Part shown: one piece after another, positions 6,237 through 63,819 of the stretch
Layout: every line of letters starts with the position of its first letter
Numbering within the stretch: position 1 is the first letter of the stretch
Source of the DNA: a virus
Reading direction: 5' to 3' (one strand)
IMG/VR virus record: IMGVR_UViG_2974543594_000001
Location: 6,679-70,678 of that record
Length of the DNA stretch: 64,000 nucleotides
Translations under genes and position numbers: made by a program
The notes under the pieces: generated by a model
Told to the model about the DNA's origin: nothing
The model's database searches: none
Seen by the model: the letters and a program-made list of their open reading frames with translations, nothing else

Positions 6237-6977
6237 ATGTCACTTGTATTTTATTCAGATAACGCTTTTTCTCAAATATCTGACCCGGACGAATATGTGC
6301 CTCCGTTTGATACTACGGGTTTAATGCGTGCGGAAATTTTCGCCCTTACGGGTATTGGGAGCAATCTGATGCCTGGCCAGCCAGACTCTGTTGTTATCGG
6401 TTCACCATCAATGGTTCCGGGCACCCCCTATGCGTCTTTCGCAAATAACGCAAGTATTGCTAATCTTGATTTAAGGATGCCTGACTCGGACCAACAAACA
6501 TGGCTTTTGGTGTGGAACCCGGCCGGCAGTTCACTCCAGCGTTTGATTATGTCGTCCTATGGTTCATCTGGAGGGAGCTCCCTTTTATTTGATGAATTCG
6601 GTAAATTAGCGGCCGCTATTGGTTATAAAACAATCAGCACCGGTGCAACTGCTGTCAAGTATGGAGTTCTATCACAAGCTCTGCCAGCAGGTGTTTCGTT
6701 TCTTTCACTGGTTATGAATGGAAAGACTTTTACAACCAAGAATCATACTTACAACAATGCCGCCACGGTTACATTGACTTCTGACCAGCAGCTTAACCCG
6801 GGTGTTTCCATTCACGTTGGTAAAGGTGCTACATCTTTATGGGGTCAGGCTGCGGCGACTAATCAAATTGCAGCCTATATGGTCTTTAACCGCGTATTGT
6901 CGGATTCTGAAATTGAAACAATTCGTCAGTATCTTTTAAGTAATATCCAGGGTGTCTATCCTGATATTACATTTTAA
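6237..6977 (+). CDS. tail fiber-associated protein (second receptor-binding or assembly component)
   Basis: 246 aa. Starts 3 nt after the tail spike stop. Same elevated GC as the spike C-terminus. Confidence 0.35.
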   Translation: MSLVFYSDNAFSQISDPDEYVPPFDTTGLMRAEIFALTGIGSNLMPGQPDSVVIGSPSMVPGTPYASFANNASIANLDLRMPDSDQQTWLLVWNPAGSSLQRLIMSSYGSSGGSSLLFDEFGKLAAAIGYKTISTGATAVKYGVLSQALPAGVSFLSLVMNGKTFTTKNHTYNNAATVTLTSDQQLNPGVSIHVGKGATSLWGQAAATNQIAAYMVFNRVLSDSEIETIRQYLLSNIQGVYPDITF

Positions 6978-29100: not shown

Positions 29101-31006
29101 TGTGAGTAACGTCATTAGCAGAGAGATGACTAAAGGCGAACCAAATAACAATGGGATGACTTTTACGCTGAAATACTACAGCAGTTTACAGGGTGCTGAG
29201 TTAGCCAAGTCTGGTAAAAATCAATCTCTGGCAGCTGTAAAAGGTTATACGCCTACTCTGACAGACCCAAATAAAAAGGTCATTGTGGCATCCGTTTTAG
29301 ATGAGCCAAGTCTGGTTCGCAGAGGCTATGTCAGAGGTGCTCAGTTTGCTCGTGACCCGAATGACCTGAGTAAAGAACCAATGTACTACTACCACTCAAA
29401 TAATGGTGGTGAGCCTCGTTGGATTGCTGGGGTAATGAGCACCCTTCAAACCACCGTAGGTGGTGTAAACCCAATCTCAGGTAGAAGTGTTAATGGTTCA
29501 ATGACTCCGGGTATCTGGGGCAGCAAAGAGAAGACTACATTAGCTACCCTGAAACGTGGTCAAATTGATGACCTGTTTGATGCTAATAAGCCTATGCCTA
29601 CTGGATTCAGTAGCTACATGCAGCCTACTCTGAACAGGGCTGGTTCAATCATGGGATACTCTTATCAGATTCCTCGTGCTAACAAAGAAGCACATCTGGA
29701 TATTGATAATGATTTCACTAAAGTAATGGCGGCTTGGGAAGGTCGTATTGCTGAGGAGATTCAGGCTGAGAAATACAATGAGATGCTTCTTCAGAGATTG
29801 CGTGAGATGTATGTGAAGGATGCTCGCCAAGGCAATGCATACCAGTACATCACTATTAATAAGAACTCAACTGACCCACAGCTCAAAGAGATTTATGAAC
29901 TGATGCCAATTGAGATGAAAGAAGCTGCCAAAGAGATTTGGCCTAATGGTGATATCAAGGTACGTAAAGACTTACTGAATAATGCATTTGGTTATCGTGA
30001 GCCTTCAGTACTGAATATGTGGACTGGTCAGACTGGTTACTCTAAAGAGTTCCAGAAAGCCTTTGTGAGTATCGCAGAGACATTCTTAGGTAAGAATGCT
30101 GCTAAGTATCTCCGCTTAGGTGAGCGTGGGATTATGGAATTTGTGAAGGAAATGAAAGATTGGATTGTTGTACGTTCAGTAGTCGTATCAGCAGCCAACA
30201 TTGTTTCCAACATGGTTCACTTAGCGACTGTAGGTGTCAGTCCAGTTACTATGGCTAAAGACATGTCTGTAGCTGTACTGGCTGCTGAAGAATACAGAAG
30301 AAACGAGAAACTCATTAACGAGTATTCTCACTATCTGGCTGTAGGACATAATCCTAAGATGGCTGATGAGTATCAGAGAAAAATTTCTGAACTCAAAGAT
30401 TCACAGGCTCGTAACCCTGTTGCTGATTTAATCAAAGCTGGTTTACTGCCTACCATCGCAGAGGATTTAGGTCAGCAGGATGATTACTCTCTGAAAGATA
30501 AACTGTTAACTAAGATGGATGAATACACTTCTGCTGTTCCAGACAGTGTTAAAAGGGTTGCCAAGGAAGTTGCACTTTCAAGAGATAGTCACATCTACTT
30601 CTTACTGAACCGTTCAATTCAGTATGGTGACTTCGTTGCTAAGTATTCTCTGTATAAACAGCTGACTACTCGCAAGAATAATCCAATGGATAAAGATAGT
30701 GCTATTGCACGAGTAATGGATGAATTCGTTAACTATGACATTCTTCCTAGCCGTACCAGATTCTATCTGGATGCAATGGGATTAACTTGGTTCCTGAACT
30801 ATAAGATTAGAATTCAGAAAGTTATTCTCAGAACGATTCGTGAGAATCCACTGAGAGCACTGTTCCTGATGTTCAGTAATAGTTGGGAATCAAACCTGCC
30901 GAACATCACTGATGCTAACTTAGTGACTGGCAGCCTGAATTATAACATTGGGTTTGGTACTGCATTGAATGGATTCACAGTACACCCGCTGGTTGAACTG
31001 TACTAA
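20117..31006 (+). CDS. virion-encapsidated RNA polymerase (vRNAP, N4 gp50-like)
   Basis: 3629 aa. Central region has T7-like motifs. Motif A region is DGVTNGPFNSIIHLG at about aa 1629. Motif B-like tyrosine is in GGLFYGQSD. Motif C-like is VFDGY at about aa 2044. A D-to-D spacing of about 415 aa fits the N4 mini-vRNAP. Confidence 0.8.
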   Translation: MATGFEKEQQLSGVGAQKAQELNQATQQKRVEMGAPVPGVEIDFPVGSPGYQRAQEAIRLAEAGPKYTREQMTQMLTAAPTAPANTGNINDFSIPEAQPITPEMQANYDAIARTKPFYRKMINPQVSPEFGGTGPFDPNHPNYQAPTQQAQIPANQQYLEDLQYMPMAALQQKYGPQAARDKLSLNIAKANTDEFSGQGIEASDIGNAAQVWLGNTARFATGLGNLALQNTQDLIADVTGRDDLAGQPTLLDQAGIDKPLKEFTEEQRGQYSPGILYEQSVIEAQKEQFKNQGAQREAADIAKGDNPLVAGAKEQLRQFVNTAEQYGDKPGALTTLIAESAPDLLTGGLVGKLATRGAFKELVKEYGEDFATKLAATKYGREKLQDAAENAFVGYVGFQEAGSNMQQTLDQIDGMTNAQLAEKSPMYRDLIAEGMSEEQARRQVRTQAGNVTAAVAGTLGALTGKLAAPFESRIFSPSLLEGTGFSSAASRILGNTLRETVEEASQGATGQFGSNLGVRTSADESQSLSEDIGSNVAESALAGAGMGAFGSAVSETPRAIQEGIQQGRSAFNERQAQREQTRAQDFRNTVNTANESVQQTSPQPDTTATTEAAPATKAVDAVTEPAAKEVFKAIPEEEISSPGSILRIARAIRNRQLDEASRRDLATVGNNVISAYEEALPNIQAQMQSAPEEQKAQYQTAIDNINAVLSNPDVQAIKTTAESFKLTPDEMTKVMESLPSEITPETYQSPEVQQGVKSVLAQMNLDAASITPETADKLINSADAIGLSQQDLNKLRVISATGKAMSQVGQDVRQGSDGFIGIQQYQQGIFRALALNDTKRAQGLLDHLNRFATHMETKADAFEQAAQNFTGNRPVEVINPTTGQPYMSLDGNPMTYHPVRSKNLVQEIRNDAAAVRQAHTITGQLVDGKPVDVPAQSEPMASEDVNSQEQTPAPEATSEEAPVETTSEQTSTEAPTEASESTNQEEVQTPAETTETQPEAVTEAPAQVNEEPVQGELFDKPETVESDIQIQEEPTSVETDLMDESQLDLGLEKGVNYDILNGLQTETVRSDAKSTSDVDKEYQATNQVKKWFKPTGKRSAFLRTSNFSGRLNSIFTNGSNPITQIQNLFKGFINPEQVTAKEVSVLRQFAGLVPAVEQSLIQSWGKLTPEGQRIFWETYPVEYFDEVRNINGENVYFLPQPVIEAMTAGMMQWFVRNASETLFNDDRAVMDILGLDNKTRPTVEQVDLLRDVGTDRQNIIDDLSREIFGILGITADPNTPISVRDTVSKALAAEVLNVMINAGLVQETVVKNSELAAVGSIKVNSSNIKNSRVFIKMNPESEASLQLVKLMEDSNDLLGQLTNPSRERANAFFDVPPKGQSTKVKNGGGQDIPEKMLAARNKASKQPHFINVGLHDLLLDKLGIEWTGRMLGIQSEENANGAHLKSIQGSNRTIERDINTLVNGLTRMVEAGKDLATTPIYFAYNVISNYRMMLNSGDLNPQSAKLHRELVTVAPSTIELNNPLHGAFLDYAIAQGLDISIDKLSSNTARERLNKAIDTGLFRDAINILKAAEIQDSISDADAETLLQAVNAGKEKTKTLHALYAQAQYELAVEQGKESFQTHIMLELDGVTNGPFNSIIHLGLKDINQDLLDKLEKGGLFYGQSDRLYNDAAEEPGFLDLYKTAAAGTQEYVNNMMDSVRNIPNRIAALSSKSKRQQQKELREIERLKNQMRVTLAASKLIGDVNIVEGEDVEHPIQIGRGLLKNPVTVTVYSGGANAINRKIAMGIVNGYYEAITEALRAVDSATTVEERDAAIAHIQDLTQTTNELTSARVFRNGDWVNIGEPINLGSDVTQFKFSGEQIDAITQNIKIGIGAAVNQSIATEFGTVVKRGKMMVYAAAVMHEVFMSRWNKEVSRLEEELRKAGKLSKFESLSQQQYNDIKQYLIGSMPIFNSWFTANNLDVDQLNTGILLSEEARQPVDNYRMESRGRRELDGKMRRSTFGVDMPTYTEPGTRVMPLLVQSVEAAMQAIARDINPNNALNVFDGYINAVEHLESGSQAINQGVFQSWNEFDLLQDFTNRFEQAMEGVDVDAELDVVAANSLQQSFDSIAEDLGLEPGIYPISPEILNDFLKELKKEAATQTAIKQGLLGGEAITSINQMTGANIPFNVQNGKQVTEQTDELIDTRTPLEQLVANTELPTVESISLPLGRVTIPPSRQMAEALDRNGRTLRGHEGVKVLAKGDVVAAVREAAKSLPSRQNKITGFILDKIEKAIPNDINVYVGSPEALSDVQWKLNPGRRVKFTSNFLGLTEGQNIYIGSQSIETVMHELIHAATANTVQAYYTDPASLTPNQRTEVASIEALMTKFVNEYTYVNPETNSVVSLINDHIESGDMAQATAEFIAWGLVNPRMIDAMTQKTVAGKVTNVLKQMADAIKRLFAIGSNPEINSYWSRLLGHTVALTDTTTSVSTADETSFAQRNANNINRLDAETLFNKLNPGKATQDHINHLTDTLDYLQSNIVRVIKQSGQQISGLDHFQEKLLVDSIDPEIDKSPDALIAHGFDMSEKEAFVFKMLQVSMKYGLENFSPSVLVARSLYAQARDQLKVSDFLTDPNNTSATEMALAKQRYDAVFGNTAITTDATGRTNRLANFIALAETHEPLRNKLAQMSVKRTRSAPASTIREHIGDLVNSILTWLSGLATKSLSNATVATRLTKLAKNISHVDSEARDNLLGRVERGSEEISQTVQDKLNAFGHMVRNQLLKVQKIVPKSVAFGINAGSAVFNDQDAQDVRTAITTIMMNIHQNGKLGTLAELVNEFIGSNETNQTIHTLLTQKNMAADRARQIIREMVPGMIEQTFVSLNQTEKEAIQKVVANTDMAYLFANGYSLARLNELLTNPNELAKEIASMESQLNSIGAQNAPFYIKSAKGLAKQMVHGVSPLVYQLPNAASIARLIGTGKVRPNDTVVNSATQLIDTLASLSALTELSQADKETVSNVISREMTKGEPNNNGMTFTLKYYSSLQGAELAKSGKNQSLAAVKGYTPTLTDPNKKVIVASVLDEPSLVRRGYVRGAQFARDPNDLSKEPMYYYHSNNGGEPRWIAGVMSTLQTTVGGVNPISGRSVNGSMTPGIWGSKEKTTLATLKRGQIDDLFDANKPMPTGFSSYMQPTLNRAGSIMGYSYQIPRANKEAHLDIDNDFTKVMAAWEGRIAEEIQAEKYNEMLLQRLREMYVKDARQGNAYQYITINKNSTDPQLKEIYELMPIEMKEAAKEIWPNGDIKVRKDLLNNAFGYREPSVLNMWTGQTGYSKEFQKAFVSIAETFLGKNAAKYLRLGERGIMEFVKEMKDWIVVRSVVVSAANIVSNMVHLATVGVSPVTMAKDMSVAVLAAEEYRRNEKLINEYSHYLAVGHNPKMADEYQRKISELKDSQARNPVADLIKAGLLPTIAEDLGQQDDYSLKDKLLTKMDEYTSAVPDSVKRVAKEVALSRDSHIYFLLNRSIQYGDFVAKYSLYKQLTTRKNNPMDKDSAIARVMDEFVNYDILPSRTRFYLDAMGLTWFLNYKIRIQKVILRTIRENPLRALFLMFSNSWESNLPNITDANLVTGSLNYNIGFGTALNGFTVHPLVELY

Positions 31007-45403: not shown

Positions 45404-46084
45404 TTACTTGATTTGCACCATTGTTAACCGTCCCTTCTCGAACACTGCACCAGTGTCGATATAGTTTTGGTTATGGTATTGCACAGGGTCTTTGGCAGGT
45501 GTGTGTCCGAAATAGAATTCGTCAGCACCTTTAATGACAGTACCTCTTGAGTTTTGGTTTTTAACCATACGTTCACGATTCCAAAGCAAAGCTTCTACGT
45601 CAACGTCTTTACCAAACTCGTACTGATTTGAAGGGTAGTCTGCATGGCAGATAACAATAGTTTTGTCATCTACTGAGACTTCAATGATACCCGGCAGGTC
45701 TGCTGCCTGAGTAAAGAGTTCGAGCACCTCTGGTTTCTGTTCTTCTGGAACTTCCAAAATCCATGTGCCTCCATTATGAAACCAGTTCATATAGGCTACA
45801 TCTCCATCATGGGTATTTGGTTCAGAAGCTAATGCATTGAGTGCCATAACTTCATGGTTACCCAATACAGTTTTAAACCAAGGTTCCTTGATTAGGCGTA
45901 AACAGCCTAAACTATCAAAACCTCGGTCAATTAAATCACCAACAGAAATGAGTAAATCAGTTTGAGTATCAAACTGGTTAGCCCATAACTGCTGTTGTAA
46001 TTCTGTGAGGCAGCCATGCAAATCTCCGACAACGAAGATTCGTTTATATTGGCTACCATCAATCTTCATATAGAGATTTTTCAT
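45404..46084 (-). CDS. calcineurin-like metallophosphatase (lambda PPase/ApaH-like Ser/Thr phosphatase)
   Basis: 226 aa. GDLHGC, GDLIDRG and GNHE motifs. Confidence 0.75.
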   Translation of the reverse strand: MKNLYMKIDGSQYKRIFVVGDLHGCLTELQQQLWANQFDTQTDLLISVGDLIDRGFDSLGCLRLIKEPWFKTVLGNHEVMALNALASEPNTHDGDVAYMNWFHNGGTWILEVPEEQKPEVLELFTQAADLPGIIEVSVDDKTIVICHADYPSNQYEFGKDVDVEALLWNRERMVKNQNSRGTVIKGADEFYFGHTPAKDPVQYHNQNYIDTGAVFEKGRLTMVQIK

Positions 46085-46152
46085 ACGACCTCCAGTAGTA
46101 GCTAGAATACGCCCCCATAGGAGGCGTATCCGAGCGCTACTGCATCGATAGA

Positions 46153-47595
46153 TTAATCTACGATGCGTTCGTGCATTTCTGCTACCTGACCGGTAACTTT
46201 GCTGACCGCCGCTTCAATTGCCGGAGCAACTGCGTTAGCGATAACTTCGTTAAAGGTCGGCTCTTTCACTTTCGGCTTGCTCTGCTCTTCGAGCAGCTTA
46301 CGCTGGGCCTGAATGGTCAGAGCGGAATCCAGCAGTGCTTTACCGCTGATTTGCTCGATAACAGTACCCGGCTCCTGATACTGGAGCTGGTGCAGCTTGG
46401 CACGTTTAACCACTTCAGCGATAACCGCCGGAATGGTACCTGCCAGCGCTTCGCCAACCAGAGTCAGGTCTTCAGATGCGTCGATGGTGTCACGACCGTA
46501 CAGGCGAACCAGTTTTTCAACTGCTTTCGCATCCGGCGGAGTCACATCGATGATGGCATCCAGACGGCCCGGACGCAGCATCGCTGGGTTGATGTTTTCG
46601 AGGTGGTTGGTAGTCAGAACGGTGATGATGCGAGAAGATTTAGTGTCGATACCATCCAGAATGTTCAGGATATCGTCCATCTTCACGCTACGTTCACCGG
46701 ATACAGCACGGTCGATATCTTCACAGAAGATAACGCACGCTTTGTCGCTGTACTGCTTAGCGAACTGAATCGCATCAGACAGCTCATCAGAGCGCGGCAC
46801 GTAAACGTAGGTAACGCCAGTTTTAACCGCGATAGACGCAGCAACTGTCGCAGCCATAGTTTTACCAGTACCGTATGGCCCACCCAGCAGTACGCCGCGT
46901 TTAACCGGCATGTGGTTGGCGATGCAGTCTTCAACGCGCTCAATCGGCGTGAACAGGTTGGTTTCAATCAGCTGGTTAACATCATCGGAATAAACCAGAG
47001 AATCGCGCGAGATACCTTGCAGATTCATGAATTCCGGTTCCGGCATTTCCAGCAGGTCGCCATCGTTATCGCGGAAGCGAATCTTAATCGCCTGACCCAT
47101 ATAGATGGATTCAGTGCGCAGTTTGTCTTCCACGGTATCGAACAGCAGCTCGATGGTACGCTCATCGGCGCGCAGTACTTTGGCTACCAGCTCAAAGCTG
47201 ATACGGCCATCTTTCTTGGCGACAGAGGTCTGAACAAAGCCTTCAACCTGCGGCAGAGAGAAGCGGCCCCACGGCACTTTTTTGGTACGGCCATAGCCGA
47301 CTTGTACGTCCAGCATCTGCGGAGGATTAGAGCCAAAGAAGCCCGGAGTCGCTTCAGCAGCAGCCCAGCCGTAACGTTCGGTCAGCGCGTTCATCAGCGC
47401 ATGGGCACCATCCCACGGGAATACGTTGTAGGTACGGCGCACAACAACTTCTTCTTCGTCGTACTTCTGACGACGCTTCAGCAGGTCGATAGCATCACCC
47501 AGCTTCATCTGCTCGGGCAGAATGATTTTTTCGCCGTGACGCACGACTTCTGCTACGTGAACTTCTTTTTCGTCTTGTTGAAGAGTTTTAGCCAT
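46153..47595 (-). CDS. classic-clade AAA+ ATPase with about 230-aa unique N-domain, encoded on a host-like GC-rich island
   Basis: 480 aa. Walker A is GPYGTGKT. Walker B is VIFCEDID. Sensor 1 is TTNH. SRH is PAMLRPGRLD. GC is clearly above the flanks and a long antisense ORF is a side effect. Confidence 0.7.
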   Translation of the reverse strand: MAKTLQQDEKEVHVAEVVRHGEKIILPEQMKLGDAIDLLKRRQKYDEEEVVVRRTYNVFPWDGAHALMNALTERYGWAAAEATPGFFGSNPPQMLDVQVGYGRTKKVPWGRFSLPQVEGFVQTSVAKKDGRISFELVAKVLRADERTIELLFDTVEDKLRTESIYMGQAIKIRFRDNDGDLLEMPEPEFMNLQGISRDSLVYSDDVNQLIETNLFTPIERVEDCIANHMPVKRGVLLGGPYGTGKTMAATVAASIAVKTGVTYVYVPRSDELSDAIQFAKQYSDKACVIFCEDIDRAVSGERSVKMDDILNILDGIDTKSSRIITVLTTNHLENINPAMLRPGRLDAIIDVTPPDAKAVEKLVRLYGRDTIDASEDLTLVGEALAGTIPAVIAEVVKRAKLHQLQYQEPGTVIEQISGKALLDSALTIQAQRKLLEEQSKPKVKEPTFNEVIANAVAPAIEAAVSKVTGQVAEMHERIVD

Positions 47596-47675
47596 TTCGA
47601 TTTACCTTTTCAGATTGGGATAAAATTACATTGTTTGAATGAAGAGAGTTAATTTCTCTTTCTTTTTCCGAGGCA

Positions 47676-47690
47676 AGCGCCGGAGGCGCT
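47676..47690 (-). promoter_or_regulatory. GGA-triloop hairpin AGCGCC-GGA-GGCGCT upstream of the AAA+ gene
   Basis: 6-bp GC stem with a 3-nt loop and no U-tract. 80 nt upstream of ATG 47595. Confidence 0.25.
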
Positions 47691-47826
47691 TTACCCTTTA
47701 CCGAACACAGGAATCACTCTGTAACCTTGATTGCGAGCAATCCGGGCTACATGTGTTTTCTTGGTTCGAATAATAAGAGTGCTGGGAATGCGAAATACAT
47801 CCCAAGCAATAGGAGATTTGGACACG

Positions 47827-48639
47827 TTACTCACCAAACTTAAGTTTGTTTTGGAAAGTACTGGATTTGACTTCATCTCGGGAAAGCTTGCCGTCCTGAA
47901 TGAAATACTGAGTAATTAACGTATTAACCATACGAATACCCAACGTATTCATCTCATAGTTATCTTTGATAAATGCTGAGATATCAGAGACAGCTTTATC
48001 TCTCTTAACTTCTGGAAATAAATCCAGATACATTGAGAGAGTAGATGAGCCTTTAAGTATATTAATTAAAGACTCCAGACTGACTTTGACAGTGTTGTAT
48101 ACCAAACCAACACGACCTAAGAACTCAGTCTTCACACCAAAGCTACGGAGCTTATCCAGAGTAATATCTGGTTCTCCGTTGAATGCTCCGGCGAAGACAA
48201 ACAGGACGTTACTTACAGGCACGTCCACATACTTGCCATAGTCGCCAAACACTGAGGTACACTCAGCTTCTAGAACCTTCAGGAATTCATTCTGAACTCC
48301 ATTAGTAGATTCATGGGCCAACTCACTATTGTTATTGCCTGCGATAAATAACTTGTCGAATTCATCTACAAAGCAAATAACAGGATTACCGTTGGCTTGG
48401 CGTAAAGGAGCTAAAGCTTTGCTTAAGCTATTACCCGATAAGCCTTCTTTGGTTAGCTGAGCAGCATTAATTTCGATGTAGTCCATCTTATGCTGGTCAG
48501 CCAGAGACTTAATTAAAAAGGTTTTTCCAGTACCACTTTCGCCAGTCAGAATGAAGTGAGGTCTCAACTGACATTCACTGGCTTTAAAGATAGAAAAGAT
48601 ACGGGAAATATCTTTCCTGAGTTGTTCTTGCTCTTTCAT
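47827..48639 (-). CDS. ClpX/HslU-like AAA+ unfoldase module (no N-terminal zinc finger, no cognate ClpP seen)
   Basis: 270 aa. ILTGESGTGKT, QLTKEGLSG, ICFVDEFDKL, NGVQNEFLKVLE, VLFVFAGAF and FLGRVGLVY parallel ClpX blocks. Confidence 0.6.
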   Translation of the reverse strand: MKEQEQLRKDISRIFSIFKASECQLRPHFILTGESGTGKTFLIKSLADQHKMDYIEINAAQLTKEGLSGNSLSKALAPLRQANGNPVICFVDEFDKLFIAGNNNSELAHESTNGVQNEFLKVLEAECTSVFGDYGKYVDVPVSNVLFVFAGAFNGEPDITLDKLRSFGVKTEFLGRVGLVYNTVKVSLESLINILKGSSTLSMYLDLFPEVKRDKAVSDISAFIKDNYEMNTLGIRMVNTLITQYFIQDGKLSRDEVKSSTFQNKLKFGE

Positions 48640-50499: not shown

Positions 50500-51516
50500 T
50501 TAGAGCATACCTGCACCAGACTCGTTAGCGTATTTCATCACCCAATCCTGAACTTCAGGAACTTGAACAATGGCAGGCCGTGCTTTAACAGCACTACTTA
50601 AAGTTACGATTTGGAATTCAACCGGCAGTTTATTGATAAACTTCATCAACTGAGCACCGTTATTGGGGTCAATCTTAGAAGCAACATAACCAGCATATGC
50701 GTATTTAATGTCTGGTCTGTTCTCAATTTCAATGCCTTCTGGGTCTTTGAGAATTTCTTCGATAGTCTTAATCTTTCCATAGATTGAAGTATATTCGATG
50801 AACTCTCTCGCAGCCCCCGGACCAATTATCCCAGAGATAATGCCAAAGTCATTATCAATGGTGAGTTCTAAGCCATGAGAAACACGGCTGGTAAAATCCC
50901 AAGTACGAGGACATGGGAATGGGTTTTTAAGGTCCTGTGGGTTGAATTTATGGAACAGGTCTTCCTTAAACATTAAGAAAGATAGGATGCGATGGTCGAT
51001 GGCATTATCCAATGCCCAGATTTTCCAATCATCGAAGTTCGCTTCCAGTTCCAAATTGACGATACGTGACAGAGTTGCACTACTCATTGTAGTGGTGATA
51101 GCTCCATCAGTATCTTTGTTACCTGCCGCTGCAATATATACGTCAGGATGAAGTTTGGTTTGACCAACCATCCCATCCAATAACTTATACGCAGCAGCTT
51201 GAACAGCTTTTGGCGCTGTATTCATCTCATCGAGGAACAGCAGCCAGCCGTTATAACCTTCAGGTATTTTATCCCCTAAGATGGGGATATCTTTTGGTGG
51301 GTGATAAACCGAACGCCCGTTTTCAATATTAGGAAATCCGAGCAAGTCAGTTGGGTCACACTGACCTAAGCGTAGGTCAATAACCAGCAACTTAAACTCT
51401 TTGGCTATCTGACGAATAATCGCAGATTTACCAATGCCCGGACTACCTTTGATAAACGGGACCAATTTAGCGCCGAAAGCACGCTCTATGGCACGCTTAA
51501 TAGCTATTGGTCTCAT
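50500..51516 (-). CDS. MoxR/CbbQ-type AAA+ ATPase (AAA_5)
   Basis: 338 aa. Walker A is GSPGIGKS. Walker B is LLFLDEMN. Paired with the VWA protein. Confidence 0.65.
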   Translation of the reverse strand: MRPIAIKRAIERAFGAKLVPFIKGSPGIGKSAIIRQIAKEFKLLVIDLRLGQCDPTDLLGFPNIENGRSVYHPPKDIPILGDKIPEGYNGWLLFLDEMNTAPKAVQAAAYKLLDGMVGQTKLHPDVYIAAAGNKDTDGAITTTMSSATLSRIVNLELEANFDDWKIWALDNAIDHRILSFLMFKEDLFHKFNPQDLKNPFPCPRTWDFTSRVSHGLELTIDNDFGIISGIIGPGAAREFIEYTSIYGKIKTIEEILKDPEGIEIENRPDIKYAYAGYVASKIDPNNGAQLMKFINKLPVEFQIVTLSSAVKARPAIVQVPEVQDWVMKYANESGAGML

Positions 51517-55598: not shown

Positions 55599-56837
55599 CT
55601 ACGAAAGCATATAATTACTTTGACGGATATATTTAGACAGGTTGTTAGACAGCTTAGCGACAGGGATACGCTTACCAGATATCTGAGATGCAATAGCAGA
55701 CAGCATGTTGCTATCAGCAATCTGTGCAAAGATATCGATGTAGTTCTGACGTACATGGTTCATGTACAGAGGATGACACTTAAAGCAATCATGGATTGCA
55801 ATCAGTGCAAATGGCTTATGAGCCAACATCTTCTCGATGATTTCAATGAGTTCTCTTCGAACCCAATGAGGAATCATGTGAACATTGAGGTGGTCAATAA
55901 ACTCAATCAGAACAGCAGATACAAATTTATGGGATTCAGTTAATTTAAGAGCCTGTGCAAGCCTTGTATCATCTACTGAATAGTTGACGATACCTTTCGT
56001 ATTAGAAGCCGTCAGAAGCTCATACACACGCTGTACTTTGAGCAAATCGTAGTTAGCACGACGATTCATCTCACGAACAATCATCCCATCTACAGAGTGA
56101 ATGACATTCGCTGCAAGTGACAGACCAGCTTTCTGACCTTGGTTAACCCAATAGCGGTGAGTGAACGAGCTATTCAGCTCATTAACTTCAAAGCTATCTT
56201 CCATTGGAACCATGACTTTAACTACAGCATTGAATCCATCTGGAAGAGTCCAGTGATGTTGTAGAGCATTTGCCTGCCATAAGGCAATCAAGTCATCACG
56301 GAGCATGTTTGCACCTGGAGCAATGATTTGAACCATCTCATAGAACTTCTGAAGCTCTATGGTGTTCTCACCAAACAGGTTTACAGGATTAGCTCTGGAC
56401 CCATAGAAATGGGTCATAGTCGCATCCTTGGTATGAGAACGTTCAATCTTGTCCAGTTTGCCATCCAGTAAGTCACCCATGACTTTATAGCCATCGGTGT
56501 ATGCATCATGACGTACATCAGGATTAACCATGTTCACAGTCTCTGCTGTGACTTTACAGCCTGTCAGTGCTGCCATGCACTGTAGACCAGATGCAGTAGC
56601 ATCCATACCTACCAGATATCCTGTAGGCAGTCCTGCCTTGGTATCTTCATAGCACAACTTACCTGCGTAGAATTGTGCAGGTTCATCTGCATCATCCACC
56701 AAACCAGATAAGTTATCTTTATTTGCTTCGAACCAGTTTAACCGGTCTTCAAACAACTCCTTGTCTAAACCAAAGGAGTTAGCAATATCTAATTTGATAT
56801 ACTGGAACGGAGTGAACGTCTGCATTTTGAGTCTCAC
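55599..56837 (-). CDS. phage RNAPII large subunit (N4 gp16-like; C-terminal half of a T7-like RNAP)
   Basis: 412 aa. GMDATASGLQCMAALTG resembles T7 DGSCSGIQHFSAM (motif A). THFYGS is motif B-like. IAIHDCF is motif C. Confidence 0.8.
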   Translation of the reverse strand: MRLKMQTFTPFQYIKLDIANSFGLDKELFEDRLNWFEANKDNLSGLVDDADEPAQFYAGKLCYEDTKAGLPTGYLVGMDATASGLQCMAALTGCKVTAETVNMVNPDVRHDAYTDGYKVMGDLLDGKLDKIERSHTKDATMTHFYGSRANPVNLFGENTIELQKFYEMVQIIAPGANMLRDDLIALWQANALQHHWTLPDGFNAVVKVMVPMEDSFEVNELNSSFTHRYWVNQGQKAGLSLAANVIHSVDGMIVREMNRRANYDLLKVQRVYELLTASNTKGIVNYSVDDTRLAQALKLTESHKFVSAVLIEFIDHLNVHMIPHWVRRELIEIIEKMLAHKPFALIAIHDCFKCHPLYMNHVRQNYIDIFAQIADSNMLSAIASQISGKRIPVAKLSNNLSKYIRQSNYMLS

Positions 56838-57043
56838 TTATTAAGTTGAGAGAAAGTTTGGATAATTTTATCTGCGTAATACTTTTTAGTTTGAGGCTGT
56901 AAAAGCCAGCAGCCCATACAATGGAACTCACACTTACCCCAATCAGCTATATTGAGATAATTACCTTTGCAAGCTGCTGCTGTATTATTTGATACAGCCC
57001 AATATCTTAATTCTGACAAAATAATTAAAAGTTCCTTATTCAT
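56834..57043 (-). CDS. small Cys4 protein, MNxELIxIL paralog family
   Basis: ATG at 57043 inside track ORF 56834..57220. MNKELLIILSEL...C-x11-C-x3-C-x2-C. Confidence 0.5.
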   Translation of the reverse strand: MNKELLIILSELRYWAVSNNTAAACKGNYLNIADWGKCEFHCMGCWLLQPQTKKYYADKIIQTFSQLNK

Positions 57044-57272
57044 CAGGAATGATTCCCAGCAGCCTCCCTGCTGAGTCCAGACCAAAGATGGTCTGTTTAA
57101 TTTCATCCTCTGACATATAGAACAATGCACATTTAGTTTTGTCGTGATTCTCACCACAGAACTTTTCACATGCAGGATGGGTACTACAGAAGTGAGTTTC
57201 CAACTCATCCGGGATATCACGTAACAACAGAGTGATTTTGATGAGTTGTTCTGGTTTAGATAATTCAGCCAT
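57036..57272 (-). CDS. small Cys-rich protein, distant member of the same family
   Basis: 78 aa. ELSKPEQLIKITLLL N-terminus and a C-x5-C-x3-C...C pattern. Confidence 0.4.
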   Translation of the reverse strand: MAELSKPEQLIKITLLLRDIPDELETHFCSTHPACEKFCGENHDKTKCALFYMSEDEIKQTIFGLDSAGRLLGIIPDE

Positions 57273-58195
57273 TATTCCTCCACTGGAACGAGTTCTTTAT
57301 CAGCCAACTGAAGTATGGCTTTACGATAAGTATTACCCTGATAGGACACATGGTACCCCTGGCAATAAGTACGACCACGTTTGTCATACTTGTGAGTCAG
57401 ATAAAACCTGTTTCCTTCGTTAATTAACATGGCAAATACCTTCATGGATTCACGTTCCATTTTCAGGAACGATTCCACTCGTGCTTGCCATTCATCATGA
57501 GTTTCCTCACTCTTTGGTGAGTCCAGATGCTTACGGTTATCACGAATATTTCGGATAACACGGTCATCAAGTGCAAACGCTACTGAATTAAATCTGTTGA
57601 TATTATCCAGACAGATATCCAGTTCATGATGATTGTTCTTCAGGATTAGAGAATCCCATTCAATAGATAGATACCCACTGCCTTTGTTATCTTTAACAGG
57701 TCTTGGTGGGACTACCATTGGAGGAAGATACTGATACTGATTGATGAGTTTGAGAGTTTTTGGTTCAAGCTGGATACGACTAACCAATTCCATTGAACCA
57801 GTGTTACTGAGCTTGGCTGGAATTACATCTACCAAATCTACGATTGCTGCTAAACCAATAAGTTCTCCAGCAGTTCGTATGGCTTCTTTCTGAGACATGT
57901 TTTTAATCATGCCTGAAACCATACCAACTATCTGGGTGTACTTGGCTACACCGAACTGAGCTAATGAACCAGCTACATCGATATAGAAATCTTCAAATAT
58001 ATCTGAATCCAGAATGGCTAATCGACGGTTCTTACTTTCAAAGTAATCACCCATCTGCCATTCTTTGGCTGCCTCTACTGCCTTATTAACTAGCGCCATA
58101 ATATCTGGTGACTCTTTTAATTCTTTTCTTATGAGGTCACGAGCTTGATGTTTTGAATACATAGTTTCAATGAGGAGTTGAGTGTCATAATTCAT
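57272..58195 (-). CDS. phage RNAPII small subunit (N4 gp15-like; N-terminal half of a T7-like RNAP)
   Basis: 307 aa. YDKRGRTYCQGYHVSYQGNTYRK matches the T7 RNAP DxRGR...PQGND region. Confidence 0.75.
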   Translation of the reverse strand: MNYDTQLLIETMYSKHQARDLIRKELKESPDIMALVNKAVEAAKEWQMGDYFESKNRRLAILDSDIFEDFYIDVAGSLAQFGVAKYTQIVGMVSGMIKNMSQKEAIRTAGELIGLAAIVDLVDVIPAKLSNTGSMELVSRIQLEPKTLKLINQYQYLPPMVVPPRPVKDNKGSGYLSIEWDSLILKNNHHELDICLDNINRFNSVAFALDDRVIRNIRDNRKHLDSPKSEETHDEWQARVESFLKMERESMKVFAMLINEGNRFYLTHKYDKRGRTYCQGYHVSYQGNTYRKAILQLADKELVPVEE

Positions 58196-58431
58196 GATAT
58201 GGCTTCCATTGATTTATGGATTTGAGCGACGAAGCTATCGTCGGGATTGTGCATCCTGTCATCACTTAAAGGACAACATTCGCAATATACGTTTGGGCAT
58301 CTAAACGTTTTACATATTTCATCCTTTGGTTTGTAATCCTCATTCTCGTATAGTCTTAATATCCCTATAAGAATGATTATGAGTTCTTGGTTCATGGACA
58401 CCTCAATAGGTGCAGACAACAAACCTGTCAT
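58192..58431 (-). CDS. small Cys-rich protein, MNxELIxIL paralog family
   Basis: MNQELIIILIGIL...CKTFRC...CECC. Confidence 0.5.
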   Translation of the reverse strand: MTGLLSAPIEVSMNQELIIILIGILRLYENEDYKPKDEICKTFRCPNVYCECCPLSDDRMHNPDDSFVAQIHKSMEAIS

Positions 58432-58906
58432 CTAACAATGGTTCGATACGTTTCTTAACGTCTCTCCACTGAAGTTCTCCAGCACCACATCCCGGTCGAG
58501 GCAATACAACTTTCTGCCAACCATATTGGTTAGCCAGTTGAACCAACTGTCTGCATGAACGTTCAATCAAATCGATTTTAGCTTTACATGCCCAGCCTGG
58601 GATTGTCTGACCTTCCGGGAAGAACTTATGCTTAACAAAGTTTGTACCATCACTGATTTCAGTGATTGGTTTAACTGGAAACGATACTACCCAGATACCA
58701 TTGTGAGTTAGTAATGCATGTACATTATTGCCTTCCTGCGCAATCTTAAGTCCCAGCACTTTATCTAAGCCCGGAACTACCATACGCATTTGCTTGGCAA
58801 TACCTGCACCCATTACAGCAGCACCATTACTTTTTACAAATCCATTGGTTGTAATGCATACGGCATCACAATCCATCTCAAGGATATTGCCTTTGGCTTC
58901 TAACAT
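58403..58906 (-). CDS. Macro domain protein (ADP-ribose binding/hydrolase)
   Basis: 167 aa. GNILEMDCDAVCITTN...AAVMGAGIA and the C-terminal LPRPGCGAG diphosphate-binding loop. Confidence 0.6.
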   Translation of the reverse strand: MLEAKGNILEMDCDAVCITTNGFVKSNGAAVMGAGIAKQMRMVVPGLDKVLGLKIAQEGNNVHALLTHNGIWVVSFPVKPITEISDGTNFVKHKFFPEGQTIPGWACKAKIDLIERSCRQLVQLANQYGWQKVVLPRPGCGAGELQWRDVKKRIEPLLDDRFVVCTY

Positions 58907-58938
58907 GATTACCTCTGATTGTTGAATTCCACCCCTAA

Positions 58939-58951
58939 CAGCCGAAGGCTG
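58939..58951 (-). promoter_or_regulatory. C-GAA-G triloop hairpin CAGCC-GAA-GGCTG, candidate vRNAP hairpin promoter
   Basis: 5-bp stem and GAA loop on the template (+) strand. About 33 nt upstream of the Macro gene start. No U-tract. Confidence 0.4.
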
Positions 58952-58972
58952 AGGAGCGAAGCGACAGAAAAA

Positions 58973-59203
58973 CTAGAACGTCTGAATAACTTTATGAAGA
59001 CAGAATATATAGATATTTTCAGTTAAATCTTTTCTGGTAAAGTAGCAATTATCACATTGAACACCTGAGCATTTAGGGATTCTATGTAATCTCATAAGCC
59101 TGCATAATTCAGGTTTACTCTCGATGAATATAATTCCTGAGCTTGAAGTATATTCAACCCTATGACATAGGGATTCTATTATTTTAATTAGTTCCCTATT
59201 CAT
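58973..59203 (-). CDS. small Cys-rich protein, MNxELIxIL paralog family
   Basis: MNRELIKIIESLC...CSGVQCDNC. Confidence 0.5.
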   Translation of the reverse strand: MNRELIKIIESLCHRVEYTSSSGIIFIESKPELCRLMRLHRIPKCSGVQCDNCYFTRKDLTENIYIFCLHKVIQTF

Positions 59204-59385
59204 AGTATTCTTTCACCTAATTCAAGAAATTTAGTTATATAAAATTTTTCTGAGGTAAATACTTTTTTCATTAAAGGGCAGGAATCACATTCAACACTAT
59301 CACAACTAAATAAATCTTTAGTCTCATGACATAGTTTTTCTGTACTACGAATAGCTCTAAGAATAACTATCAATTCATTATTCAC
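59200..59385 (-). CDS. small Cys4 protein, MNxELIxIL paralog family
   Basis: GTG start. MNNELIVILRAI...C-x8-C-x4-C-x2-C. Confidence 0.45.
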   Translation of the reverse strand: MNNELIVILRAIRSTEKLCHETKDLFSCDSVECDSCPLMKKVFTSEKFYITKFLELGERIL

Positions 59386-59557
59386 AAGAAATACCTATTA
59401 CATATCTTATGCCCATTATGTATTCAGTAGGTCCAGATAAGATGCAATATGGGCATCTAATTTTTCTGCACTTTGGATTATTAAAACTATTTAAGCAGAT
59501 GTTATAATTCTCCTTCTTAGATATCTCATTAAGAATAGTTAATAATTCTTTATTCAT
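59378..59557 (-). CDS. small Cys4 protein, MNxELIxIL paralog family (not in the ORF track)
   Basis: 59 aa: MNKELLTILNEISKKENYNICLNSFNNPKCRKIRCPYCILSGPTEYIMGIRYVIGISCE. GGAGAG RBS. Confidence 0.5.
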   Translation of the reverse strand: MNKELLTILNEISKKENYNICLNSFNNPKCRKIRCPYCILSGPTEYIMGIRYVIGISCE

Positions 59558-59724
59558 ATTATTCTCTCCCCAAATTGAATTAAGTGGTATGCATAATTAT
59601 CAATATGTTTTCTATCAATACAACAATTACGACATGATATTCCAGCACAATTTACATCTTTAATTTTATAACAAAGATGTTTATCCAAAATGGATGAGAG
59701 AATAATAATTAATTCTTGGTTCAT
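59554..59724 (-). CDS. small Cys4 protein, MNxELIxIL paralog family (not in the ORF track)
   Basis: 56 aa: MNQELIIILSSILDKHLCYKIKDVNCAGISCRNCCIDRKHIDNYAYHLIQFGERII. Stop overlaps the next ATG (ATGA). Confidence 0.5.
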   Translation of the reverse strand: MNQELIIILSSILDKHLCYKIKDVNCAGISCRNCCIDRKHIDNYAYHLIQFGERII

Positions 59725-59733
59725 ACATACCCC

Positions 59734-60000
59734 TTAAAAGGGCATGGTACTTCCAATGACTACACTGAAAATAGCATCCCTGAGAGTTTTGAAATAACGT
59801 GTACCAACATAGTACATGTTCTTTTTATTAACAGGGCGCTTGAGAATGTATGCTGATGTACCATTAATGTGGACACCCCATAATTTCTCTTCACGACTGT
59901 AAGTCACTGTATACTCAGGAACAAATCCCAGATTAACAGTTCTTACTTTACTGGTTTCTTTCACTTTCTTTGACATATTGATATCCTCTTGGATTGACAA
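59734..60000 (-). CDS. hypothetical protein
   Basis: 88 aa basic protein, unrelated to the paralog family. Confidence 0.4.
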   Translation of the reverse strand: MSIQEDINMSKKVKETSKVRTVNLGFVPEYTVTYSREEKLWGVHINGTSAYILKRPVNKKNMYYVGTRYFKTLRDAIFSVVIGSTMPF

Positions 60001-60044
60001 CTATCTAACAAGACATTGATATTGGACTACCAATATCGATAGCC

Positions 60045-60269
60045 CTATTTATAGAGTCTTTTATTAGTAACTATTATTTGATTGGAATATCCAAATACTT
60101 CTTTAATACCTAAAGGACAATGGTCACATCCTCTTTTTGTTCTACACCATTCTAATTTATCAAATAGTATGTACTCACAGAGTTCATCTATTGGACCTAT
60201 ATCATGTGCCATTCGAGATGTAGCTTTTAATCTCATGGCTCTGAGTATTTCTATTAATTCAGGATTCAT
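60045..60269 (-). CDS. small Cys4 protein, MNxELIxIL paralog family
   Basis: MNPELIEILRAM...C-x10-C-x5-C-x2-C. Confidence 0.5.
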   Translation of the reverse strand: MNPELIEILRAMRLKATSRMAHDIGPIDELCEYILFDKLEWCRTKRGCDHCPLGIKEVFGYSNQIIVTNKRLYK

Positions 60270-60483
60270 TTAATACTCTACTGGTTTTAGATACACCTGA
60301 TGGATAGTTACTTTCTTGTTCAACAGATGCAAATATTGGGCAGTTATGGCAACTGACATGAGCGCATCTTGGAATAGAATCCATATTATCCATATCGCAT
60401 ACAGTCCTACATAAATCATCTTTGGTTTCTCTGTAGCTGCTATTTACTATCGAATAGATTATTTGAGTTAATTCATTATTCAT
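60259..60483 (-). CDS. small Cys-rich protein, MNxELIxIL paralog family
   Basis: MNNELTQIIYSIV...CRTVC...CAHVSCHNC. Confidence 0.5.
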   Translation of the reverse strand: MNNELTQIIYSIVNSSYRETKDDLCRTVCDMDNMDSIPRCAHVSCHNCPIFASVEQESNYPSGVSKTSRVLNES

Positions 60484-60904: not shown

Positions 60905-61336
60905 TTACGATGCCAGTGCATTCAGAATCGCACTGACTGCGCTGGTGGATGCGGTATGCTCGGTCTGCTCTTTACGGCGATAGAGCTGAACCTGCAACTT
61001 CGGCAGCTCCTGACCGCTACCAGCTTCCAGTTCACCACCCATTTTGACCAGAGCTTTCAGCAGCTCATTACGAGCAGCAGCCTGGTTGTTCCAGACTTCG
61101 TTGTTACCACGGATAACCAGCTCGCTCATGGTATCCAGCGGCAGGCCATACGGCAGAGACAGGAACGTATCCACCATATCCCCGTTTTCATCAGGCATCG
61201 GAACGGTTACGCCGATGTTGATGAAGAATTCAGCTTGCGGACGGTCGCCAGACTGCTGACGATTTCCGTTACCCTTACCACCCAGAGCTGCGCCGATGAT
61301 AGAACGAGCTTCGTTAGAGTTGTTGATAGTAGCCAT
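60905..61336 (-). CDS. hypothetical protein on GC-rich island
   Basis: 143 aa. Host-like GC and codon usage. Flanked by upstream GAA-triloop hairpins and a downstream terminator. Confidence 0.5.
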   Translation of the reverse strand: MATINNSNEARSIIGAALGGKGNGNRQQSGDRPQAEFFINIGVTVPMPDENGDMVDTFLSLPYGLPLDTMSELVIRGNNEVWNNQAAARNELLKALVKMGGELEAGSGQELPKLQVQLYRRKEQTEHTASTSAVSAILNALAS

Positions 61337-61394: not shown

Positions 61395-61431
61395 CTTACA
61401 GGAGAAAGGAGAACTTAAGGAAGAACTCCAC

Positions 61432-61448
61432 CACCGTCGAAGACGGTG
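61432..61448 (-). promoter_or_regulatory. C-GAA-G triloop hairpin CACCGTC-GAA-GACGGTG, candidate vRNAP hairpin promoter
   Basis: 7-bp stem and GAA loop. Core GTCGAAGAC is identical to the hairpin at 63902-63918. Abuts the stop of 61456..61833. Confidence 0.4.
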
Positions 61449-61455
61449 ATGAAGA

Positions 61456-63458: not shown

Positions 63459-63794
63459 TTATTTATTGAGGTGCTTAGCTACCAGTGCATCGAATACCTT
63501 CTTAACGTCTTCATCTGCTCCAGCCATAGCTTTGGTTGCTTCTGCATGTACCTCTGCTACTTCTTTAGCTGCTTCCATAACATATTTGGTACGGAAGATT
63601 TCACCCTCTACCTCACGTTTGATGGCACGATGATGACGGAGATTCTCAATCTCATCATTACCCCATTCGGTTAAGGCTACAGCCATATTTGCGGTATTAG
63701 CTACAGCTACTGCACCACGCTCAATAGCATTGAGAGCAGATACAGTTGAAGAAGATACAGCACCGAAGATACCAATAGAGTTTACAGGTTTCAT
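63459..63794 (-). CDS. hypothetical early protein
   Basis: Second ATG (MKPVNS...) has GGAG 6 nt upstream. The track start 63800 abuts the GGAG. Confidence 0.45.
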   Translation of the reverse strand: MKPVNSIGIFGAVSSSTVSALNAIERGAVAVANTANMAVALTEWGNDEIENLRHHRAIKREVEGEIFRTKYVMEAAKEVAEVHAEATKAMAGADEDVKKVFDALVAKHLNK

Positions 63795-63819
63795 ACACAT
63801 CTCCAGACAATTTAAAGGA

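Follow-up and report, generated by a model that had tools for sequence, protein, structure and literature searches.

Small four-cysteine proteins at the split RNA polymerase II genes of Klebsiella phage KpCHEMY26: a tentative polymerase partner and an expanded early-gene family

The viral DNA analyzed here (64,000 nucleotides, positions 6,679 to 70,678 of IMG/VR record IMGVR_UViG_2974543594_000001; hereafter "the window") carries the two genes of a split, T7-like RNA polymerase II (RNAPII), here RNAP1 and RNAP2, together with small cysteine-rich genes that lie against and between them, all on the minus strand. Across the 2.8 kb compared, the DNA has 100% identity to Klebsiella phage KpCHEMY26 (MN163281.1; Schitoviridae, Humphriesvirinae, Pylasvirus), whose record coordinates minus 6678 give window coordinates. 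Judged from sequence, this is the phage's early operon for its heterodimeric RNAPII, which is of the N4 type. The small genes fall into two families. The first, p78, is held between the polymerase genes across deeply diverged lineages, and synteny, selection, and a gene fusion lead us to a tentative reading of its product, one we consider possible but short of probable, as a lineage-specific, metal-binding protein partner of RNAPII. The second, family M, behaves like a set of cassettes that are replaced, gained, or lost between near-identical phages. The genes at issue are as follows.

57272-58195, minus strand: RNAP1, N4 gp15-like small RNAPII subunit, 307 residues (phrog_2166, E 5.7e-113; PDB 6DT7 chain A, E 1.5e-41)
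55599-56825, minus strand: RNAP2, N4 gp16-like large catalytic subunit, 408 residues (phrog_2051, E 9e-160; Pfam RNA_pol PF00940, E 5e-16)
57036-57272, minus strand: p78, 78 residues, single-copy, acidic (isoelectric point, pI, 4.8; phrog_22821, E 1.6e-51)
56834-57043, minus strand: c69, family M, 69 residues, directly upstream of RNAP2 (phrog_16571, E 5e-6; family hidden Markov model, HMM, E 8e-16)
58192-58395, minus strand: c67, family M, 67 residues, directly upstream of RNAP1 (phrog_16571, E 1.2e-14)

The initial annotation of this DNA had proposed a split T7-like RNAPII of the N4 gp15/gp16 type, and comparison of both open reading frames (ORFs) with the N4 proteins bears this out: in addition to the PHROG assignments above, RNAP1 matches chain A of PDB 6DT7 over residues 151-303 and RNAP2 matches chain B over its full length (E 1.9e-77). 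The DxRGR motif that had been ascribed to the T7 N-terminal region is present in RNAP1 as DKRGR (the T7 DxxGR motif; residues 271-275, window 57371-57385), but it sits near the C-terminus of the small subunit, so that "N-terminal" fits it only on the scale of the complete T7 enzyme. The N-terminal 150 residues of RNAP1 gave no alignment to the N4 gp15 N-terminal domain in the 6DT7 chain A comparison. RNAP2 holds all three motifs claimed for it, i.e., motif A (DATASGLQ, 56580-56603), motif B (KDATMTHFYGS, 56397-56429), and motif C (HDCF, 55782-55793), though the GTG at 56837 first taken as its start was rejected in favor of ATG 56825 (MQTFTPF...), the start conserved in N4 and other relatives and used in GenBank. 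The two genes match non-overlapping parts of the enzyme and carry its motifs, and a virion RNA polymerase (RNAP) and homologs of N4 gp1 and gp2 are encoded in the same genome; by homology to N4, the two products would form an active heterodimer that transcribes the middle genes. A split RNAPII of this kind is already known, the N4 enzyme having been characterized biochemically and its structure solved (PMC4496689; PDB 6DT7). The GenBank label on both genes, "virion RNA polymerase subunit," is mistaken: because a 3629-residue virion RNAP is encoded at 20117-31006, the two small polymerase genes are those of RNAPII and not virion RNAP subunits.

Relative to N4 RNAPII (gp15/gp16; PDB 6DT7, 6DT8, 6DTA), the split point, gene order, and early-region location are the same, as are the placement of DxxGR in RNAP1 and of motifs A, B, and C in RNAP2 and the presence of a virion RNAP and gp1/gp2 in the same genome. 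The two systems differ in that the N4 polymerase genes lie 47 nucleotides apart with nothing between them, whereas those of KpCHEMY26 lie 446 nucleotides apart and enclose two genes; N4 RNAP2, moreover, is only 37% identical to that of KpCHEMY26, and N4 has neither p78 nor family M. N4 encodes a small cysteine-rich early protein two genes upstream of gp15 (gp13, 61 residues, CxC...CxxC; L004 3966-4151), which has no sequence relationship to either family and could be a functional analogue.

Two small genes with exactly four cysteines each do lie between the subunit genes, as first described, but the paralogy that had been claimed between them is not detectable (hhalign probability 0.2%, HMM E 0.39, different PHROGs); the true paralogs of c69 are c67 and six genes at 58973-60483. 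The third small gene, c67, overlaps the start of RNAP1 as reported (c67 stop and RNAP1 start share ATGA, 58192-58195), although its own start was misplaced: the family N-terminus MNQELI begins at ATG 58395 with a GAGGT Shine-Dalgarno motif 6 nucleotides upstream, which makes this the most likely start and the one given earlier, at 58431, less likely. Further along the operon, the RNAP1 stop overlaps the p78 start (TAATG, preceded by a GGAGGA Shine-Dalgarno motif), the c69 ATG overlaps the end of p78 (ATGAATAA), and 8 nucleotides separate the end of c69 from the RNAP2 ATG. Related phages keep all three small genes around RNAP1 and RNAP2 intact, with purifying selection acting on each.

p78 evolves like a core gene, with identities that parallel those of RNAP1 and RNAP2. 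Specifically, identity to the KpCHEMY26 protein is 97% in Pylas, 83% in Pollock, 90% in SP-058, 64% in TR2, 43% in EcP1, and 43% in G19, while the RNAP1 identities for the same phages, in the same order, are 98, 82, 80, 79, 45, and 43%; the ratio of nonsynonymous to synonymous substitution (dN/dS) of p78 against MY01 is 0.06, compared with 0.06-0.12 for RNAP1 and RNAP2. The four cysteines of p78 are at positions 29, 35, 39, and 48, of which C29, C35, and C48 are invariant and C39 nearly so (alignments A6/A7); they form the motif FC-x3-P-x-C-x3-C-x(8-17)-C-x-L(F), to which a conserved ILG-x-I-x-D/E tail is added. The median pI of the p78 family is 5.3, and that of family-M proteins ranges from 4.7 to 9.5.

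The position of p78 is conserved as well. Wherever both flanks are readable it lies between RNAP1 and RNAP2, with RNAP2 identity down to 42-50%: this holds for Pylas, MY01, Pollock, FSL SP-058 and relatives; for TR2 (Triduovirus), EcP1 (Eceepunavirus; gp08), G19, and Erwinia S6 (gp029); for the metagenomic contigs L013/L014, L020, and L021; and for all nine of the nine p78 loci found in IMG/VR. One more contig (L015) carries an M gene followed by p78 and is too short to reach the polymerase genes. In most lineages the p78 start overlaps the RNAP1 stop. Pantoea phage G19 has gained a MazE/MazF pair and, in the opposite orientation, a UmuD-like gene between RNAP1 and the small genes (L007 684-3250), and despite this insertion the M-M-p78 block stays directly upstream of RNAP2; the RNAP1 of this phage is mis-annotated as "signal transduction protein." The clade in which the gap holds p78 and at least one family-M gene comprises Humphriesvirinae, Triduovirus, Eceepunavirus, Pantoea G19-like phages, and several metagenomic lineages; the Erwinia S6-like phages of the same clade have p78 as the only one of the two in the gap. 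A p78 profile search returned 21 clusters, and the profile matched nine among 1.84 billion representative proteins.

The two families are linked by a fusion. P0059, a protein of 136 residues found in two samples and one of the nine profile matches just mentioned, has an M domain (ELIDVL...C..C..CxxC) as its N-terminal half and p78 as its C-terminal half, and it is encoded between RNAP1 and RNAP2 (L013 1349-1759; L014 279-689). On a diverged 44-kb contig (L020 3806-4237), an M-like four-cysteine module likewise stands in frame with p78 with no stop between them. Such an arrangement suggests, as evidence of the Rosetta-stone type, that the M and p78 modules work together, in what would be about two related lineages and not many.

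Family M presents a different picture. Its consensus is MNxELIxIL, a variable linker, C-x(2-18)-C-x(3-10)-C-x2-C, and a C-terminal helix, and among 132 unique sequences the median identity is 27% while the four cysteine columns are 97-100% conserved (in c69 the cysteines are at 25, 38, 42, and 45). The family HMM finds eight copies in the window, each a short ORF (family range 56-79 residues): c69, c67, and six more.

58973-59203, 59200-59385, 59378-59557, and 59554-59724, minus strand: tandem array of four family-M genes (HMM E 1e-12 to 1e-17)
60045-60269 and 60259-60483, minus strand: two further family-M genes (family HMM, identity profile)

Within the array, start and stop codons overlap from one gene to the next. 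Copies elsewhere number 7-8 each in Pylas, MY01, and Pollock, at least 8 in TR2, at least 12 in FSL SP-058, at least 7 in EcP1, and at least 5 in Pantoea phage G19, and the HMM had no match in N4, Vibrio phi 1, Erwinia S6, or FBKp27; a database search recovered 34 clusters among 5.8 billion proteins. All M-containing genomes examined have an M gene directly against the start of RNAP1 and between one and three in the RNAP1-RNAP2 gap.

The copies turn over between close relatives. c69 shares 66% amino acid identity with its MY01 counterpart at a synonymous divergence (dS) of 1.32, compared with 0.14-0.28 for the neighboring RNAP1 and RNAP2; c67 shares 48.5% with its Pylas counterpart (dS 0.92), although the flanking genes are 98% identical (dS 0.14-0.16). 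The third array gene (59378-59557) is absent from Pylas, and the block at 60045-60483 is the most divergent against both Pylas and MY01 (44-80% DNA identity). With dN/dS below 1 (0.17-0.52), family-M genes are functional and are being swapped and not decaying. We also considered the conserved MNxELIxIL N-terminus as a DNA-level signal (e.g., a promoter) and rejected it, since synonymous positions vary there and the constraint is therefore on the protein. Eight copies, fast turnover, and 3.6 kb of early region argue against a role for family M that is tied only to RNAPII.

Most of these genes are missing from existing annotation. The GenBank record of KpCHEMY26 gives no coding sequence for six of the eight family-M genes, c67 and all four of the array among them (with an annotation gap at record positions 65585-66411), and it annotates the eighth only as a truncated coding sequence of 41 codons. 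Unannotated family-M ORFs also occur in Pollock (L003 6215-6427), TR2 (L005 3230-3415), EcP1 (L006 702-905), and SP-058 (L008 4409-4609). A low-G+C stretch of the window (58001-60000; 0.357, compared with ~0.41 in the rest) coincides with the family-M array.

Domain and literature searches place neither family among characterized proteins. Not one of p78, c67, c69, and 37 family-M members had a Pfam match that passed the cutoff; the best PDB profile match with family M had E 0.94; and a comparison with gp1, gp2, and the LUZ7 protein Drc found no homology to p78 or family M, only PHROGs of unknown function being matched. We found no functional annotation among database homologs of either family and no literature description of these small proteins, which are recorded only as PHROGs of unknown function or "hypothetical protein"; the RNAP1-p78-M-RNAP2 module, the expansion and turnover of family M, and the M::p78 fusion appear to be previously undescribed. 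Where the genomic context of homologs is available it fits N4-like phages, with one homolog on a 73.7-kb contig labeled Pantoea eucrina. Four cysteines kept across divergent homologs, a generic mark of metal binding, are found in both families.

The reading of p78 that we favor, with the reservation stated at the outset, runs as follows. Through its four conserved cysteines p78 would bind a metal, with zinc as the first candidate and an iron-sulfur cluster as the other, a prediction drawn from cysteine conservation only. It would be made in step with RNAP1 through stop/start-coupled translation, and it may act on RNAPII in assembly, cofactor docking, or promoter use; direct DNA binding is unlikely because p78 is acidic. 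Family-M proteins probably have in common an N-terminal helix and a four-cysteine knuckle, with loops and C-terminal helix that vary. Given the copies fixed before RNAP1 and before RNAP2 and the M::p78 fusion, some M proteins at least may work with p78, while the other copies are more likely diversifying early effectors. The initial annotation had cast all three small cysteine proteins as RNAPII accessory factors, an idea that has indirect support for p78 (through synteny, selection, and start overlap) but not for the other two, which belong to the eight-copy, fast-turnover family.

This reading of p78 fits what is known of N4-type enzymes. N4 RNAPII alone cannot use promoters and needs gp2 (a single-stranded DNA-binding RNAPII recruitment factor), gp1 (without which N4 does not use its middle promoters), and an unidentified melting factor "X" (PMC4496689). 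The N-terminal domain of RNAP1 has been proposed as a cofactor docking site, such that divergent N-terminal domains imply different cofactors (PMC7145618). A p78 partner would be consistent both with lineage-specific cofactors docking on that domain (PMC7145618) and with the missing N4 promoter-opening factor (PMC4496689). N4 gp1 and gp2 and LUZ7 Drc are likewise small early proteins that the minimal RNAPII needs and that vary by lineage (PMC4496689; PMC7145618). gp2 and Drc bind single-stranded DNA and Drc is described as having a high pI (PMC7145618), whereas p78 is acidic with a four-cysteine cluster. p78 does not resemble them in sequence, and it occurs here alongside homologs of both gp1 and gp2. 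The idea that p78 stands in for a lost gp1 or gp2 was rejected, as both homologs are present, and so was a link between p78 and a longer RNAP1 N-terminal domain.

Small cysteine-rich proteins that act on RNA polymerase have precedents. P2 Ogr, P4 Delta, and WhiB-like iron-sulfur proteins are ~60-90 residues long, have four conserved cysteines, and contact RNA polymerase. Their target is the host RNAP, and their cysteine spacing differs from both the family-M pattern and that of p78 (C-x5-C-x3-C-x(8-17)-C).

Several observations weigh against p78 as an RNAPII partner. N4 RNAPII works without p78 or family M, and KpCHEMY26, which has homologs of gp1 and gp2, shows no obvious vacancy for a further cofactor. 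Phage records with an RNAP2 homolog number 469, while those in which tblastn found p78 number 22, the Erwinia S6 homolog being found separately. RNAP1 length (266-307 residues in p78-positive phages) does not separate these from p78-negative phages, and homologs of the RNAP1 N-terminal domain also occur in p78-negative Vibrio and Klebsiella phages. The gap holds unrelated genes elsewhere (LIT1 gp20-22, Gutmeister gp23, FBKp27_050, phi1_0017, and the Possum HNH gene), and since such genes fill it in other Schitoviridae it is a permissive insertion site. A scattered distribution, varying copy number, and replacement, as seen in family M, are more typical of host-interaction genes. The fusion contigs L013 and L014 are identical in DNA and so count as one lineage, and gene calling on L020 yielded p78 alone. 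AlphaFold2 models of c69 (37-sequence alignment; predicted local distance difference test score 61.6) and p78 (six sequences; 56.8) have a helix/Cys-loop/helix pattern but neither is reliable, and Foldseek searches of the PDB with these poor query models gave zero matches for either. The case for an accessory factor is one from association, i.e., synteny, selection, and one fusion.

A bolder version can be imagined, in which the RNAPII of this clade would be an enzyme of three or more parts, with p78 as a metal-binding third subunit that supplies the promoter-opening or specificity function of "protein X," and with M proteins docking via their N-terminal helix and four-cysteine knuckle, as in the M::p78 fusion, to serve as sigma-like adaptors that would retarget RNAPII to other promoter sets or host backgrounds. 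We regard this as speculative and very unlikely.

The foremost alternative, plausible if somewhat doubtful in our estimation, is that the small genes are passengers: the gap would merely tolerate them, p78 and M proteins would be early host-takeover or anti-defense proteins with host targets and without an RNAPII role, and their position would reflect shared early timing and vertical inheritance. The unrelated genes in the same gap in LIT1, Gutmeister, FBKp27, Vibrio phi 1, and Possum, the MazEF and UmuD-like insertion in G19, the absence of both families from N4, and the gp1 and gp2 cofactor homologs already in the genome are all as such a view would have it, as is the behavior of family M, in which copy-number change, allele replacement, and a dS far above that of neighboring genes make an arms-race-like pattern. 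p78 sits less easily with it. Unlike family M, it occurs as a single copy and evolves under the same constraint as the polymerase; it never leaves the gap across lineages at 42-50% RNAP2 identity, even where there are insertions; and most lineages couple its start to the stop of RNAP1. The passenger explanation is thus better supported for family M than for p78.

It is unlikely, though less so than the multi-part enzyme above, that p78, with or without M proteins, instead binds the virion RNAP or the host sigma70 RNAP and stops early or host transcription when RNAPII appears. In this case it would resemble other small phage RNAP-binding proteins, and its place beside the RNAPII genes would be a matter of timing. 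That p78 is small and acidic with a four-cysteine cluster, is probably co-transcribed with RNAPII, and belongs to an N4-like program, which in N4 requires hand-overs among three polymerases (PMC4496689), would suit such a role. Against it, p78 has no similarity to a known RNAP-binding protein or Pfam family, the data favor neither the virion nor the host RNAP over RNAPII, and N4 switches polymerases without these proteins. The idea that the small ORFs are chance ORFs in intergenic spacers, to which their short length (56-79 residues) and the many unannotated family-M ORFs in the KpCHEMY26 GenBank record might have pointed, is effectively refuted by their intactness in all relatives (dN/dS 0.06-0.52), HMM E values to 1e-17 and existing PHROG families, the four cysteines kept in 132 sequences at 27% median identity, synonymous variation in the N-terminus, and Shine-Dalgarno motifs with overlapping start and stop codons.

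In relatives the same RNAPII gene junctions are also occupied by free-standing HNH homing endonucleases, and the RNAPII genes are a recurrent target of mobile elements. The Possum enzyme (gp024; L017 1795-2457) lies between RNAP1 and RNAP2, Pylas_020 (L002 7584-8096) separates the c67 counterpart from RNAP1, and that of Vibrio phi 1 (SBVP1_0019; L009 4655-6756) divides RNAP2 into two ORFs. p78 and family-M proteins differ from these in being 56-83 residues long and without a nuclease domain (Pfam scans found neither HNH nor GIY-YIG), and p78 is vertically conserved rather than sporadic. A homing endonuclease or mobile insertion was accordingly rejected for p78, which has a fixed position in all clade members examined; family M does turn over, but it too is without a nuclease domain. 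Elsewhere in the Pylas genome, the gene for a nucleoside triphosphatase (L002 1-910; window ~50500-51516) is interrupted by an HNH-containing intron, whereas in KpCHEMY26 this gene is annotated as a single continuous coding sequence, though a "split by intron" note has been copied into the record.

Among known T7-like RNA polymerases the N4-type RNAPII is the smallest. It does not find promoters unaided, and what opens the AT-rich middle promoters is an open question (PMC4496689). Kept between the subunit genes across deep divergence, p78 is a concrete and testable candidate for the missing partner. Family M, for its part, is a clean case of a lineage-specific, expanded early-gene family that takes up ~2% of the genome with most copies unannotated, and it is relevant to therapeutic Klebsiella, Salmonella, and E. 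coli phages of this subfamily. Should neither family touch RNAPII, an annotation correction and the definition of two uncharacterized families would still stand.

The wider context of the locus is that of an N4 early region. The minus strand carries the genes of 52-64 kb, in the gene order of the N4 early region, and the following features bear on the account above.

20117-31006, plus strand: giant virion RNAP, 3629 residues, a Schitoviridae hallmark (phrog_2206, E 0, 3034 bits)
63459-63800, minus strand: N4 gp1 homolog (phrog_5020, E 3.4e-31; N4 gp1 in the same family, E 1.3e-46)
60905-61336, minus strand: N4 gp2 homolog (phrog_4099, E 5e-37; tblastn against N4 gp2, 34% identity, E 5e-16)
58403-58906, minus strand: Macro-domain gene (Poa1p-like, annotated "phosphatase"; Pfam Macro, E 2.6e-4, at 21.3 bits just below the 22-bit cutoff; phrog_335, E 3e-26)

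The early region also holds sequences that, recognized by eye, we take to resemble N4 gp4, gp6, and gp12. A strong terminator-like hairpin follows the gp2 homolog (60896-60879), and a terminator scan of the coding strand found no further strong site from 60879 to 53414, so the family-M array, the polymerase genes, and the small genes are likely co-transcribed; by analogy with N4, the enzyme that transcribes this early operon would be the virion RNAP.

The macro-domain gene sits between the family-M array and c67, to which it is closely joined (its TGA is followed by GAGGT and then by the c67 ATG at 58395). It is found at the corresponding position in Pylas, MY01, Pollock, SP-058, and TR2 (77-98% identity; MY01 100%), and a "phosphatase" gene of Pseudomonas phage LIT1 (gp17) is similarly placed; a role in ADP-ribose signaling or defense could be envisaged. 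Upstream, between a GTP-binding-like gene and the gp2 homolog, lies a minus-strand hairpin (61426-61454; core CACCGTC-TTC-GACGGTG, 13 pairs including G-T, 3-nucleotide loop, poor T-tract) whose role may be that of a terminator or of a virion RNAP promoter hairpin in the N4 style; as a repeated promoter element it was rejected, there being no second copy in the window. Away from the early region, a G+C-rich block (0.496) lies at 46001-48000.

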